From positions 1,891-65,890 of IMG/VR virus record IMGVR_UViG_3300025939_000001: a stretch of 64,000 bases of DNA, one strand, 5' to 3'. The notes below the pieces were generated by a model. It had not been told where the DNA came from and did no database searches. It saw nothing but the letters and a program-made list of their open reading frames with translations. The stretch is from a virus (taxonomy: Duplodnaviria > Caudoviricetes). The position numbers and the translations under genes are program-made. Positions 16,182 through 50,334 of the stretch are shown here, in pieces (the stretch's first letter is position 1; every line of letters begins with the position of its first letter).

Positions 16182-16517
16182 TTAGATCTTCCAGGACAGC
16201 CCGCAGCTGAGACACGTCTCAGAGGCGGGCTCATCCATGATTGCCTCACTTCGACAACCGGGACATCGAAGGCGTACCGCAGGACGCTTAAGTGCTCGTC
16301 GCTGTTTAGGCGTCATTCCGCCCCAGACGCCATACTCTTCATTGATTTTCATCGCCCAGTCGAGGCAGTCGATCGCAATGGGACAGCGATGACAGATGGC
16401 GAGAACTGCTGGATCAGCGTGGGTTGCACGATCATTTTCAAAGAACTGCTCTGTGTCTGTGCCGATGCATTCGGCAAACTCCCAGTTTGGGAGCTGGTCA
16501 CTTCGTTTCTTTGTCAT
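16182..16517 (-). CDS. whiB: WhiB family transcription factor with a C-terminal Zn ribbon
   Basis: C-x..-C-x2-C-x5-C spacing, GVWGG turn and C-terminal CPGC...CLSC. Confidence 0.92.
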   Translation of the reverse strand: MTKKRSDQLPNWEFAECIGTDTEQFFENDRATHADPAVLAICHRCPIAIDCLDWAMKINEEYGVWGGMTPKQRRALKRPAVRLRCPGCRSEAIMDEPASETCLSCGLSWKI

Positions 16518-17300: not shown

Positions 17301-17335
17301 TAGCAAAGTGGGAGGATCCCGAAGAATCCTCCCAC
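17301..17335 (-). terminator. Intrinsic terminator after DUF932
   Basis: GTGGGAGGAT/ATCCTCCCAC 10-bp stem followed by TTTGCTA on the minus strand. Confidence 0.75.
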
Positions 17336-17345
17336 TGGGTGAGTG

Positions 17346-18356
17346 CTATTTCTCCATACGAAGCAGGTGCACGGCAGCCTTGTTGATCGACTTGTGCGTG
17401 ATGCCCTGCATCGCGTTCAGGAACTTCGACTCCGACGTGCCGGCGGGACGCCAGTCGAGCCACTCGCTGATCGCGTTGACGAGTCCCCAGCCGGTGCCGT
17501 GCCACCCGACGTATGGCGAGGAGTGCATCTTGTCGAGGATGAGGTTCGTGACCTCGTCCTTCTTCTTGGTGTGGTTCGGGATGACGTACCCGAGGACAAG
17601 CTTTGCCTTCTCGTCGTTGATTTTGATCGCAGCGAGCCGAGTGGCGAGCTCGTTGTATCGCTTCGTGTAGGCTTCTGCCTTGCCCAGTGAGGACTTCATG
17701 TCACCGAGCTTCGCGGTCATCGTCGACGTGTGCCGCACCGACCACTTGTGCGGGACGTTTGCGGAGAACGAGGCGAGCGTCAGCTGGTTCATACAGAGTC
17801 CGCGAAGCGGCATCATCATGACCTCGACGGCCTTCGTGAGGTCCATACTCGTCCGCAGAACGGCGAACATCTCGTGCGGGTCGCCGCCATCGAGCACGTT
17901 GACCTGCATGTGCTGCGGAAGACGCATGACCATGAAGCCCTGTTTGCCACCCTTAAGTGCACCAGCGGCGACGTAACGTGCACCTTCGCCCTTCACAGCC
18001 TCGTCCATGAAGTCGAATGCCTCCGGGTACTGGAGGATCGGATAGTCTGACGAGACGATACTGAGCGGCTCCAGCGTGTCGTCACGAACGATGATCTTGC
18101 GGTTCGTCATCTTGCGAAGGCACTCAGGAGACGTGTTATCTTCTACCGTCTCCGTATCACCCTCTTTGAAGAACGTCTCGTCGCAAGTGAAGTACACGTT
18201 TCGAGCCGAGACCGTGAAGTCCAGGCCGCCCTGCTTCGCCGCTTCCGCCGCCGTGAGCGGATTGTCGACGACCTTGCCGAGCTTCATCCACGGGACCATA
18301 CGATCCGTGAATTGGACGTTCTCCCCGCCCTCAGCGAGCGTAACGCTCTGCGTCAT
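17346..18356 (-). CDS. DUF932 family phage/plasmid protein
   Basis: VPWMKLG, IIVRDDTLEPLSIVSSDY..LQ..EAFDF, AGAL.GG, P.R..C.NQL, HT and GT.WGLVNA.EW.DW motifs. Confidence 0.85.
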   Translation of the reverse strand: MTQSVTLAEGGENVQFTDRMVPWMKLGKVVDNPLTAAEAAKQGGLDFTVSARNVYFTCDETFFKEGDTETVEDNTSPECLRKMTNRKIIVRDDTLEPLSIVSSDYPILQYPEAFDFMDEAVKGEGARYVAAGALKGGKQGFMVMRLPQHMQVNVLDGGDPHEMFAVLRTSMDLTKAVEVMMMPLRGLCMNQLTLASFSANVPHKWSVRHTSTMTAKLGDMKSSLGKAEAYTKRYNELATRLAAIKINDEKAKLVLGYVIPNHTKKKDEVTNLILDKMHSSPYVGWHGTGWGLVNAISEWLDWRPAGTSESKFLNAMQGITHKSINKAAVHLLRMEK

Positions 18357-18389
18357 GGTCTTGTCCTTTCGTCTGGCGCGACTTGCGCG

Positions 18390-18482
18390 TGGACCGGGCA
18401 GGATTCGAACCTGCATGCATCTTCCCCACTAAGGGTGCTCCTCCTGCCAGTGGCAGGCGCTCTACCAATGAGCTACCGATCT
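18390..18482 (-). ncRNA. tRNA-like element with a 5-nt anticodon loop and long variable arm
   Basis: Acceptor AGATCGG/CCGGTCC, D-arm GCTC-ATTGGTA-GAGC, anticodon arm CCTGC-CACTG-GCAGG, T-arm GCAGG-TTCGAAT-CCTGC. Confidence 0.7.
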
Positions 18483-18510
18483 GTGGTGGGATACGCTCCC
18501 ACGGGGCGTG

Positions 18511-18792
18511 TTACCGTTCGGTAATCTCGACGGGGTTCTCATCCACCGGCTCGAAGTCACCGAGATCTAGGCTGTAGTTGTCGCCGTAGCCCATGCCGCA
18601 GCATGAAGCACAGAGACTCGGCATGCCCTGCTCGCTGAATGCCTTGTCTTCAGCAACCTCAACGATGTCGTCCACCGTGAGTTCACTGACGGGCTTCTCG
18701 AGGTCCTTCGCGATGCGATCGAGCGTTTCGTCGTCGAGCTCGACGTAAACCGTCGCACTCGCCCAGGCTTGCGCGTGAACCACAACCTTCAT
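18511..18792 (-). CDS. Hypothetical acidic protein (C-x2-CC motif)
   Basis: GGAGG RBS with its own promoter upstream. Confidence 0.7.
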   Translation of the reverse strand: MKVVVHAQAWASATVYVELDDETLDRIAKDLEKPVSELTVDDIVEVAEDKAFSEQGMPSLCASCCGMGYGDNYSLDLGDFEPVDENPVEITER

Positions 18793-18830
18793 TGTATCCT
18801 CCATCTTGCCGTTGTTCCGGCGTTGAGATA

Positions 18831-18860
18831 ACTATAACAGGACCCGTGGCCCAGTGTAAA
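18831..18860 (-). promoter_or_regulatory. SigA/HrdB-type early promoter
   Basis: TTTACA-18 nt-TATAGT followed by the leader TATCTCAACGCCGGAACAAC. Confidence 0.7.
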
Positions 18861-22126: not shown

Positions 22127-23389
22127 GGTCAGTCCTTGTCCTTGAAGAAGTTTACGGAACTTTTTGAGCGTCGAATTCGACTGTACCACATCTGAAGTCG
22201 AAGCGTTCGTCGTGTCGATTAAATGTTCCCGCTCGCCGATCTTGACTCCCGTGAAGGAGCCTGGATTCTCCTCTAGAGCGGCTCGAATCCAACCGCCGAT
22301 CCAGTTGCCACAGTCGACTGTAATACCTTTACCCCAGGTGGCTGGGAGACCCGGAACGCTACGTAGAGGTTCAATCAGCCAGCTGTCTGGGAAGCCGAGG
22401 ATCCGCGCAACCTCACGATGTGTCAACATCCGAGGTTTTCTTGGGTGCAGTGTGATGACGGGGCCTGCGCCGGTGATTACTCTCGCTGGATCACTCGCTC
22501 GCCAGCGAACTGGTGTGTTGAATCCCATGTTGAACCCTCGGGCGACCACCTTCTCCTCAAAGGACGCCCATGAATTGGGCAGTCGTCCGTGGGTGTCGTA
22601 GTAACGCTTGGCAACTCGAGCAAGGTGGTCACCCTCTGGCCACTCCACACCCGACAAAAGGTCAACCACTCTATGAACGATTGGAGAACGAACCGACATG
22701 TGCCCGTCCACGAGCCCGTCGTCACGTGTGCGAGGCGTGGCCCACCAGGAAGGAGGCGTGTCACCCACAGGCTGCGGTAGCCAGGTTTCGGGGAGATGCT
22801 CCAAGTCGCCGATAGCGTCGTCCAACACAGGCAGTCGACTTGGGCGAGGCCACTCGATCCCAAAAGGAACCCTTGCGGCGACCCAAAAATACCGTCGCCG
22901 ATGCGCGACTCCACCGACTGCGTATGCGTCGTGTAGAACGTGAAAGAGCGTCCAATTCTCATTCGTCAGTTCCTCCAACCGTTCACGCAGTGCTCGCATG
23001 AGCGCGAGACCATCCGGCCGCGTGAAGGCGAGCTGTACCGACTCAAAGACTGCGACTTGCGGCTTTACTTTCGCGGCATACTCAACGAATGACCACATGC
23101 ACTGGTTGATCGGAGAATTCGCACCACGGAAGTGCTTCGCTGACATACCAGAGAAACCCGAGCACGGTGGATTGCCGGCAACCACATCACTCTCCACGAC
23201 GCTCCACTGGGTAGCGTCCACGGCTTCTGCTTTCCATCCTGCACCAAGTAGGTGGCGGTTCGCTTCGCAATTCGCGACACCGAAACCTCCCTTCATCTCT
23301 CGCTTACCGACGAGCTCGAAGCCCGCCTGGACCATCCCTAAGGTAAAGCCACCAGCGAACCCGAGCACGTCGACAAAGCGAAAGGTCAT
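21722..23389 (-). CDS. C5-cytosine DNA methyltransferase, in frame with a C-terminal winged HTH
   Basis: Motif I FVDVLGFAGG, IV GNPPCSGFS, VI FESV, VIII RRRYFW, IX/X R.LT.RE.ARI.GFPD..GKGI. Confidence 0.85.
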   Translation of the reverse strand: MTFRFVDVLGFAGGFTLGMVQAGFELVGKREMKGGFGVANCEANRHLLGAGWKAEAVDATQWSVVESDVVAGNPPCSGFSGMSAKHFRGANSPINQCMWSFVEYAAKVKPQVAVFESVQLAFTRPDGLALMRALRERLEELTNENWTLFHVLHDAYAVGGVAHRRRYFWVAARVPFGIEWPRPSRLPVLDDAIGDLEHLPETWLPQPVGDTPPSWWATPRTRDDGLVDGHMSVRSPIVHRVVDLLSGVEWPEGDHLARVAKRYYDTHGRLPNSWASFEEKVVARGFNMGFNTPVRWRASDPARVITGAGPVITLHPRKPRMLTHREVARILGFPDSWLIEPLRSVPGLPATWGKGITVDCGNWIGGWIRAALEENPGSFTGVKIGEREHLIDTTNASTSDVVQSNSTLKKFRKLLQGQGLTMTDPTAPEAPVDETAVPVDEAASLENAVANTKSGSGRPRPQATIDQDAKVLEYLSANVEDVVAGKTKEEIATALDLAPNKVYLSLWRLKRDGKVYKTNAGGGAARWIAGNAPSPAEAPTSVEQTDAPVEETVAL

Positions 23390-37798: not shown

Positions 37799-37845
37799 GC
37801 TCCCCCGCCGGGATTCGAACCCGGCACTTGCGCCGATCGGGGGAG
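37799..37845 (-). ncRNA. Mini tRNA-like element (acceptor stem + T-arm, no anticodon arm)
   Basis: CTCCCCC/GGGGGAG 7-bp acceptor and GCCGGG-TTCGAAT-CCCGGC T-arm, joined by only 13 nt. Confidence 0.65.
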
Positions 37846-38391: not shown

Positions 38392-38416
38392 CGTGATCCT
38401 TTCGACAGAGACTGAT

Positions 38417-38444
38417 GGGAGGCGAAGGGGCTGCTTCGCCTCCC
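38417..38444. terminator. Hairpin terminator
   Basis: GGGAGGCGAAG/CTTCGCCTCCC 11-bp stem. Confidence 0.65.
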
Positions 38445-38550
38445 GAGGCGGACTTCTTACGTCGACGACGTCGCCGGCGGTCTTCTCATTTCATCAGGTC
38501 CAGTCGGTGCCGCGGGTCATATGAGTCACCTCCTCTTGGTCTTTTCTACG

Positions 38551-38615: not shown

Positions 38616-38721
38616 ACAACCGCCGACGCTTGCTGAGGCGCCGACGGCTTCTATGCGGTGTTTCCTTGTTGCCGTTGAGAATATTCTATCAGGACTTATG
38701 TTATCCTGACGGTTTTTCTCG

Positions 38722-49826: not shown

Positions 49827-49902
49827 GAGGGAGTAGAGGAGTTCGGTCGTCCTCGCCGGCCTCATAAGCCGGAAATCGGTGGTTCAAATCCGCCCTCCCC
49901 CA
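49827..49902 (+). tRNA. tRNA-Met (CAT), or lysidine-type Ile2
   Basis: Cloverleaf: GAGGGAG/CTCCCCC (one mismatch), GAGG/CCTC, CCGGC-CTCATAA-GCCGG, GGTGG-TTCAAAT-CCGCC. Confidence 0.85.
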
Positions 49903-50044
49903 CAAGGTCTTCGCATCATACTCCTAGGCAGAGGTGCGGGATCGGGTGCAGTGTTGATGTAGGGACCGGCAAGGCTCGTCACCAGCCACCGAGAATGCGT
50001 CACGACTGGGTCACTCCCTTAGGGACGTTCATCCACTGCATTTC

Positions 50045-50116
50045 GCTTGGGTAGCTCAATGGCAGAGCGGGCGATTCTAAATCGCTTGGTTGGGGGTTCG
50101 AGTCCCTCCCCTTGCA
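50045..50116 (+). tRNA. tRNA with a CTA anticodon (amber suppressor-like)
   Basis: GCTC-AATGGCA-GAGC, GGCGA-TTCTAAA-TCGCT, GGGGG-TTCGAGT-CCCTC. The acceptor GCTTGGG/CCCTTGC has two U-U mismatches. Confidence 0.75.
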
Positions 50117-50334
50117 CGCTAGGGACCCACAGGTCGGGTATGGGATGGGCGCTGAAAGGCTCCATGTGGGTGCGTTGCCTTCGGGTGATAGGAGATCCCG
50201 ACCCTTATGGAAAGACAAGTCCTGGAACACCTAGGTGGAGACGCTTGAACCTCTTCTCGTCGTGAACGCTGCGATGGGCTGATGAGGGAGTCATAGAAGC
50301 CCATGATGGTTAGTACAGGCACATGAAATGAAAC

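Follow-up and report, generated by a model that had tools for sequence, protein, structure and literature searches.

A non-decoding, tRNA-shaped element between two cistrons of a phage operon as a candidate signal for RNase P and RNase Z

At the 3' end of MALAT1, the tRNA-like fold of mascRNA reportedly acts as a processing signal for RNase P and RNase Z that ends a longer transcript. In plant mitochondria, t-elements direct cuts by these two enzymes at mRNA ends (Forner et al. 2007, PMC1920247). The YrlA RNA of Mycobacterium smegmatis contains a tRNA-like module with a 7-bp acceptor stem; RNase P cuts this module, which also receives a CCA tail (Chen et al. 2014, PMC4201824). A 93-nucleotide (nt) element of comparable shape lies on the minus strand of the genome of an uncultured phage, IMG/VR virus record IMGVR_UViG_3300025939_000001, of which 64,000 of 65,890 bases (the window) were analysed; the record has direct terminal repeats. 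The element derives from a tRNA, no longer decodes and lies just before a gene of the DUF932 family. Judged from sequence, it may be the phage counterpart of t-elements, a cis-acting signal for the RNase P and RNase Z of the host, a reading to which slightly less than even confidence is given.

Anatomy of the element and loss of decoding

The element has the shape of a tRNA (Table 1). ARAGORN calls a gene at 18389..18482 on the minus strand, labelled 'tRNA-Ser (act)', and the Rfam model RF00005 scores it at 46.5 bits (gathering score 29; E 9e-7 over the whole window). The original prediction, for which ARAGORN had been proposed as a check, described canonical D arm, T arm and acceptor stem, a 5-nt anticodon loop that effectively closes to a 6-bp stem with an ACT loop, a variable arm of about 28 nt and a position about 33 nt before the DUF932 start. 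The three canonical arms were upheld by base-by-base reading and by RF00005, apart from one A1.C72 mismatch, as was every detail of the anticodon and variable regions; the distance to the DUF932 ATG (18356) is 33 nt. In the acceptor stem six of the seven pairs are standard, U4.G69 being a wobble, and U8 and A9 follow its 5' strand. Conserved tRNA nucleotides (U8, A14, G18G19 and the T-loop UUCRA) are present, and the T-arm motif GGTTCRANYCC, a criterion for t-elements, is matched by GGTTCGAATCC (18411..18401).

The anticodon stem and the T stem are 5-bp helices of identical sequence (CCUGC/GCAGG, within 18398-18457, minus strand), and a swap of partners is possible. Despite this, the cloverleaf makes up 59% of the predicted ensemble. 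An in-frame ATG in the variable insert (18416, minus strand), 2 nt before the T arm, lengthens the DUF932 open reading frame (ORF) to 356 amino acids, reading through the T arm.

The element is unable to decode. Its anticodon loop, CACUG, has 5 nt (effectively 3), with neither the 7-nt length nor U33 nor a purine at position 37, and CCA is not encoded at its 3' end. Every single excision from the 43-nt stretch that separates position 26 from the T stem was enumerated, and in no case was a canonical anticodon arm restored, with 4 or more pairs, a loop of 7 nt, U33 and R37. Neither an RtcB or Rnl-type ligase nor a phage-encoded CCA-adding enzyme was found in the genome. An intron-containing tRNA was rejected on the excision result and the lack of a ligase, and a group I intron would need a longer insert. 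Sequence error, or a simple 2-nt slip, is ruled out by the additional 28-nt insert and by the unrelated deformations seen in relatives.

The type of body was assessed by scanning bacterial genomes with a pattern made of the 3' half of the D arm, CCUGC, 7 nt and GCAGGAGG. At least 157 sites in at least 120 loci matched, and the anticodons among the matches listed were of Ala (128), Pro (22) and Val (7) tRNAs. The body looks like that of a class-I, Ala-type tRNA minus two loop bases and plus a variable-loop hairpin, despite the absence of G3:U70. A class-II tRNA, as the name given by ARAGORN (Ser) implies, is ruled out by the D arm and anticodon stem, which are of Ala/Pro/Val type. Nor is the element a tmRNA. 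An origin as attP or an integration remnant was rejected in view of the complete cloverleaf with its own 5' half, the direct terminal repeats and the presence of three such elements.

It is extremely improbable that the element is a working exotic or intron-bearing tRNA which still decodes. ARAGORN does assign it an anticodon (act), and reads the 8-nt loop of a related element (contig L087) as a 4-base anticodon, but this has to be set against a loop without U33 and purine 37, an excision search without solutions, a genome without an RNA ligase gene and the missing G3:U70.

Table 1. Positions of the element, its parts and other features of the window and of related contigs (empty cells, no value given)
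Feature	Position	Strand	Basis or remarks
tRNA-shaped non-decoding element, 93 nt	18390..18482	minus	ARAGORN, Rfam covariance model, folding
Acceptor 5' strand, AGAUCGG	18482-18476	minus	base-by-base reading
Acceptor 3' strand, CCGGUCC	18397-18391	minus	base-by-base reading
D arm, GCUC-AUUGGUA-GAGC	18473-18459	minus	
Anticodon hairpin, CCUGC-CACUG-GCAGG	18457-18443	minus	closes to 6-bp stem, loop ACU
Variable insert, 28 nt	18442-18415	minus	interrupted 7-bp hairpin
T arm, GCAGG-UUCGAAU-CCUGC	18414-18398	minus	
Discriminator A	18390	minus	
Promoter-like site TTTACA-18-TATAGT, TG-extended, 5' of orf97	18831..18860	minus	consensus scan, 10/12 matches
orf97, small upstream cistron	18511..18804	minus	no Pfam/PHROG match
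Hairpin 1, GUGGGA-GCGUA-UCCCAC, 17 nt	18486..18502	minus	folds in context; single copy in window
Hairpin 2, GCGC-AAGUC-GCGC	18376..18388	minus	minimum free energy fold in context
Shine-Dalgarno-like GAAAGGA, inside conserved GACGAAGGA block	18364..18370	minus	
DUF932 gene	17346..18356	minus	PF06067, E 4e-34
Terminator-like 13-bp hairpin with T-rich tail, 3' of DUF932	17307..17336	minus	consensus match
WhiB-like gene	16182..16517		
Second non-decoding tRNA-like (38.6 kb), 4-nt 'anticodon' loop	38551..38615	minus	Rfam, 26.4 bits
Third mimic (37.8 kb), acceptor plus T-arm minihelix only	37801..37844	minus	Rfam
tRNA with anticodon CUA (ARAGORN 'Pyl')	50045-50117	plus	60.3 bits
tRNA-Met(CAU)	49827-49903		
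Canonical tRNA-Glu(CUC) in L002, L008, L013			63.5-66.5 bits
82-nt element, 16-nt 'anticodon' loop, in L003 and L004	L003 2733-2814; L004 2883-2964		
Additional 150-nt element in L003			~98 nt replacing anticodon and variable regions; 24.3 bits
104-nt element in L009			6-nt loop, two extra hairpins
Elements in L006 and L014			weaker folds bearing T arm
Additional mini element in L013			
'tRNA-Ala (cgc)' in L004	L004 2265-2337		ARAGORN, 44.8 bits
94-nt relative of the window element in L087	L087 1500-1594 (= G002 23218-23310)	minus	T arm identical

Operon context and the proposed cleavage

The element occupies a 154-nt gap between the 97-codon orf97 and the DUF932 gene and is flanked by two hairpins. 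Hairpin 1 ends 3 nt upstream of its 5' end, hairpin 2 begins 2 nt downstream of the discriminator, and an unconstrained fold of the intergenic stretch, 177 nt taking in the whole gap, gave hairpin 1, the cloverleaf and hairpin 2 in succession. No promoter or terminator was predicted between orf97 and DUF932 in a consensus scan, and promoter, orf97, element, DUF932 and terminator are predicted to form a single unit. Homologues of orf97 also precede DUF932 in three related contigs (L006, L008 and L011).

What the element retains is the stack formed by its 7-bp acceptor and 5-bp T stems, together with the T loop and the D loop. These are the features read by RNase P, RNase Z and CCA-adding enzyme. 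A punctuation signal is favoured because the features kept are those that tRNA end-processing enzymes read. According to this proposal, orf97, the element and DUF932 would be transcribed as one two-gene message. A cut by host RNase P at the 5' end of the element would leave an orf97 message terminating in hairpin 1, and a cut by host RNase Z after the discriminator would leave a DUF932 message that opens with hairpin 2, closely followed by the ribosome-binding site (RBS). The outcome would be two separately stabilised mRNAs and a free tRNA-like by-product able to receive CCA. Hairpins of this kind protect against exonucleases and 5'-end-dependent decay, and hairpins 1 and 2 would, on this reading, protect the new ends. 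tRNA genes without encoded CCA go with processing by RNase Z. As the Streptomyces tRNA-Ala genes retrieved have no encoded CCA, the RNase Z route fits such hosts. From the WhiB-like gene of the window, the host is judged to be an actinobacterium.

Of the functions originally suggested, a processing or stability leader for RNase P and RNase Z is the best fit to the anatomy and to the comparative data, and it is put forward as a proposal from sequence. The T-box-like switch is not supported. None of the seven Rfam matches in the window at E up to 5 is to a T-box, there is no terminator/antiterminator alternative, and T-boxes bind tRNAs rather than resemble them. A decoy for anticodon nucleases or for ribosome-dependent sensors of uncharged tRNA is unlikely, because the anticodon loop that it would need is precisely the part that is missing.

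The position before DUF932 in relatives and other tRNA-like elements

Relatives of DUF932 were drawn from IMG/VR and JGI metagenomes. Ten distinct contigs in which DUF932 was at least 55% identical and upstream DNA was present made up the comparison set (the window, L002, L003, L004, L006, L008, L009, L011, L013 and L014). Duplicates were excluded (L005, L007, L012, L107, L109, L117-L120 and L122), as were L010 and L019, which have no upstream region. The slot is conserved: a tRNA or tRNA-like element is in the same operon in nine of the ten contigs, and within 250 nt of the DUF932 start in eight. Non-decoders are the sole occupants in six, the same region being deformed in a different way in each. 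The elements of L004, L006, L009 and L014 and the mini element of L013 were absent from the Rfam matches at E up to 5; their tRNA-likeness rests on our own parse and minimum free energy (MFE) folds and is weakest for L006, L014 and the L013 mini element. The element is missing at more distant DUF932 loci, where ARAGORN genes were found in only 3 of 60 (L008, L013 and L048) and a T-loop motif no further than 250 nt from the start in 0 of 23 and 1 of 35.

The closer DUF932 relatives are 11 proteins with 77 to 86% identity (P0003-P0014 without P0005). P0005, which is 81% identical, is a 422-amino-acid DUF932 call whose N-terminal extension runs through a whole element, translating hairpin 1 (PVGAYPT) and the T arm (WVRFP); the implied element is shorter, at about 70 nt. 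Over-extension of ORFs, as here, can hide such elements.

Damage to the non-decoders is limited to the anticodon and variable regions, and their acceptor and T stems stay paired. Across nine of them, 105 of 108 positions in these stems are paired, compared with 43 to 57 when the partners are slid, a count which is partly circular as most of the elements were found by tools demanding such pairing. The four most similar elements (the window, L087, the 150-nt element of L003, or L003B, and L009) have the D arm and an 'AUG' before the T stem in common and show double changes in 6 of 12 pairs. A MAFFT alignment of 16 elements left the 5' ends too poorly aligned for a covariance model. Between L003 and L004 the 82-nt non-decoder is identical at 80 of 82 positions (97.6%), compared with 776 of 1086 (71.5%) for the adjoining DUF932 genes, indicating that non-decoders can be under strong constraint. 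The sequence of the 16-nt loop of this element itself seems constrained.

Three of the ten contigs have a different occupant, tRNA-Glu(CUC), in which the loop CUCUCAA is constant and the anticodon stem covaries. An intact 7-nt loop in relatives had been named at the outset as the mark of a simple decayed tRNA or of sequence error. Such a loop is present in these three contigs, in a tRNA that is not an orthologue of the window element, from which it differs in the acceptor and in both the D and the anticodon stem; the other relatives have other non-decoders.

Several observations weigh against a processing signal. The MFE of the element (-37.3 kcal/mol, z -1.49) is not unusual, 16 of 200 shuffled sequences being equally stable; its tRNA shape is above chance because of the covariance model and the conserved tertiary nucleotides, not because of folding energy. 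A1.C72 with C at -1 is not a favoured context for RNase P. The promoter and terminator assignments are consensus pattern matches, which are not proof of function. No close orthologue of the element was found: there was no match in IMG/VR to the exact 19-nt anticodon-arm pattern, and neither a near nor a distant match to the element in the phage collection. In L008 the tRNA lies further upstream, before the small ORF rather than between the cistrons, and in the leader of L011 no tRNA or tRNA-like element was found; a cut between the two genes is not, on this evidence, indispensable. Finally, with a working-looking tRNA-Glu(CUC) in the operon of three of ten contigs, the slot may be a plain tRNA-gene site with decaying or swapped occupants.

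If so, the occupant of the window would be a dead Ala-type tRNA, functionless and undeleted. Decay of this kind is unlikely. Points in its favour are the canonical tRNA-Glu(CUC) in the operons of L002, L008 and L013, the 5' half and anticodon stem that match those of cellular tRNAs (the Ala, Pro and Val matches listed above) and the complete loss of the element in L011. It does not readily explain why every top-half stem and every conserved tertiary nucleotide is intact, with damage only to the anticodon loop and variable region, or why the 28 inserted nt form a hairpin that leaves the shape undisturbed. Six of ten contigs with only non-decoders, each differently deformed in the same region, and a non-decoder conserved at 97.6% beside a gene conserved at 71.5% also speak against it. 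Phage genomes usually delete useless DNA fast, which was likewise counted against decay.

The hairpins that flank the element recur in relatives. Hairpin 1 is directly 5' of a tRNA or tRNA-like element in six contigs (the window, L004, L006, L013, L014 and L100), and L011 has a compensated variant (GUGGGC...GCCCAC). At the position of hairpin 2, all eight aligned trailers have a GCGC...GCGC or GUAGC...GCUAC hairpin, for which covariation is not countable, the GCGC stem being invariant in six trailers; in those of L013 and L014 the hairpin is another one, shifted in register. The 17-mer of hairpin 1, GTGGGAGCGTATCCCAC, is exact in 16 IMG/VR stretches. Eight of these belong to an unrelated phage group (L098, L099, L101, L103, L104, L105, L110 and L111), where the 17-mer lies about 90 nt before a gene start with no tRNA-like element after it; GTGGGAGCGTATCCCAC may be a signal of broader use, in RNA or in DNA.

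If the gap were an uncleaved, cis-regulatory leader of DUF932, such as a structured insulator or a platform binding a phage or host protein that tunes translation, the actual operators would be hairpins 1 and 2. The eight stretches in which the 17-mer of hairpin 1 occurs without a tRNA-like element fit such a leader, as does the better sequence conservation of hairpin 2 and the GACGAAGGA block than of the tRNA-like element. It is nevertheless improbable: a leader of this type leaves the retention of a full tRNA top half unexplained, the RBS has no alternative partner in the MFE fold, and none of the Rfam matches at E up to 5 is to a cis-regulatory family.

A role in trans is distinctly unlikely. 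The element would then be a tRNA mimic, or a tRNA scaffold displaying the variable hairpin as payload. Once freed and given its CCA, it could sequester, as a decoy, a host protein that recognises the acceptor end, the elbow or a long variable arm. One example would be a nucleotidyltransferase toxin of abortive infection, of the MenT/AbiEii (DUF1814) type, AbiEii being related to MenT. An Ala-type body joined to a long variable arm would suit such a target, and the inserts, which measure from 28 nt to about 98 nt (the window, L009, L014 and L003B), change quickly, as a part engaged in conflict would. The host group, Actinobacteria, is also consistent. MenT3 of Mycobacterium tuberculosis, a toxin that blocks the 3' ends of tRNAs, prefers tRNA-Ser by its long variable loop and accepts tRNA-Ala when given that loop (PMC11162799). 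However, the 38.6-kb and 37.8-kb mimics and the 82-nt elements (L003A/L004A) have no long variable arm; CCA is not encoded, and a phage CCA-adding enzyme, RtcB or an Rnl ligase was not found in the genome. In its narrowest form, a purpose-built decoy soaking up the MenT/AbiEii (DUF1814) acceptor-end toxins of actinobacteria, a role in trans is very doubtful indeed. RNase P and RNase Z would free such a decoy, which would receive its CCA tail from the host and be unable to enter translation, and the fast-changing inserts of the relatives would reflect an arms race. In a wider sense, tRNA scaffolds may serve phages for the expression and stabilisation of small RNA payloads.

If the processing signal is the correct reading, bacterial viruses punctuate messages with dead tRNAs, as organelles do, and have a promoter-independent means of controlling individual operon genes in stability and dosage. 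This would also account for part of the 'odd tRNAs' or 'pseudo-tRNAs' that annotation pipelines report or hide in phages. The order hairpin, tRNA top half, hairpin and RBS forms a compact module and is a candidate natural insulator part. Punctuation of phage messages by non-decoding tRNA-like elements was not described in the full-text literature searched, most subscription journals being outside its coverage.

Two further mimics in the leftward-transcribed part of the genome had been claimed originally, each before an RBS, and both are present, about 30 nt upstream of RBSs of AGGAGG type. The 38.6-kb element stands behind a hairpin and a TAGAAT promoter-like site. No normal gene follows it (38400-38520, minus strand). 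A strong AGGAGG is followed by two mini-ORFs of 8 and 10 codons, which overlap each other as TGAAATGA, and then by an 11-bp GC-rich hairpin. This layout, downstream of an early promoter, looks like that of a leader peptide or an attenuator.

Leader hairpins with a common AGCAAGC loop and covarying stems are found just 5' of tRNAs or tRNA-like elements located downstream of promoters (L002 2790-2845, L003 2690-2740, L008 2520-2560 and the window at 38625-38655, minus strand). The L087 relative of the window element is behind an early promoter, at a position equivalent to that of the 38.6-kb mimic. Its 8-nt loop with a 4-base anticodon is the parse of ARAGORN; Rfam places a 30-nt insert within a 4-bp anticodon stem. 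The 'tRNA-Ala (cgc)' of L004 has no real anticodon stem and starts about 6 nt after a promoter-like site (TTGACT-17-TATAAT), which would make it the extreme 5' end of a transcript. The window also has a tRNA with the anticodon CUA, of amber-suppressor type, whose acceptor stem has two adjacent non-standard pairs (U.U), and beside it a tRNA-Met(CAU) with an A2.C71 mismatch.

DUF932 gave 450 matches in cultured phages, mostly actinophages and all below 60% identity. Its AlphaFold model (predicted local distance difference test score 77.5) had no informative structural match. No link to the function of DUF932 emerged: the best hit of a profile search against the PDB had E 0.38, that of Foldseek E 0.021, and the best Z of VIA-align was 6.3, inside the stated noise of that method.

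The 8-mer CCCAGTGG is present in 57 copies on both strands of the window, mostly within genes, where about 2 to 3 are expected by chance by our estimate. An overlap exists with the 5' stem of the terminator after DUF932 (17339) and, in contigs L004 and L011, with hairpin 1. A tie between CCCAGTGG and the anticodon hairpin was rejected, since only 7 of 8 positions match, which by estimate is expected by chance.

Comparison with described tRNA-like RNAs

The RNA with mascRNA at its end is eukaryotic and nuclear, whereas the window element is a phage RNA without a match to RF01684. In the window only the 37.8-kb mimic scores with this model, at 24.7 bits against a cut-off of 42.5.

Like the window element, the pseudo-tRNA 'tRNA-Other' of Bacillus cereus has the shape of a tRNA but no function in translation. 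It is reported as a stand-alone chromosomal gene with a regulatory phenotype (PMC3399842), whereas the phage element sits between cistrons. The chimeric substrate of MenT3 also combines a tRNA-Ala body with a long variable loop of tRNA-Ser type. That chimera is an engineered RNA whose anticodon loop is normal and which ends in CCA (PMC11162799). In the window element the arm is longer (28 nt) and the loop is crippled, and a link to a toxin is conjecture.

YrlA is nearer in setting. It is an RNA of actinobacterial context with acceptor, T and D arms and no decoding (PMC4201824). It is encoded beside rsr and has Ro60 as its partner, the tRNA-like part being embedded in a Ro-binding stem. The window element is not a YrlA RNA: there is no TROVE gene (PF05731) in the 65.9-kb genome and no match to RF02553 in the window at E up to 5. 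A weak match in L003 (E 2.2) is merely two tandem tRNA-like elements.

The closest likeness is to the t-elements of plant mitochondria. In both cases a non-canonical cloverleaf with the T-arm motif GGTTCRANYCC lies beside a coding sequence on the same strand. The cut-directing role of t-elements is partly shown, and stem-loops are involved as well (PMC1920247); for the phage element that role is proposed. Unlike t-elements, it belongs to an actinobacterial phage rather than to an organelle, and it is known from sequence instead of mapped ends. It is also set apart by its tightly placed flanking hairpins and by a slot that in some relatives is held by a real tRNA.

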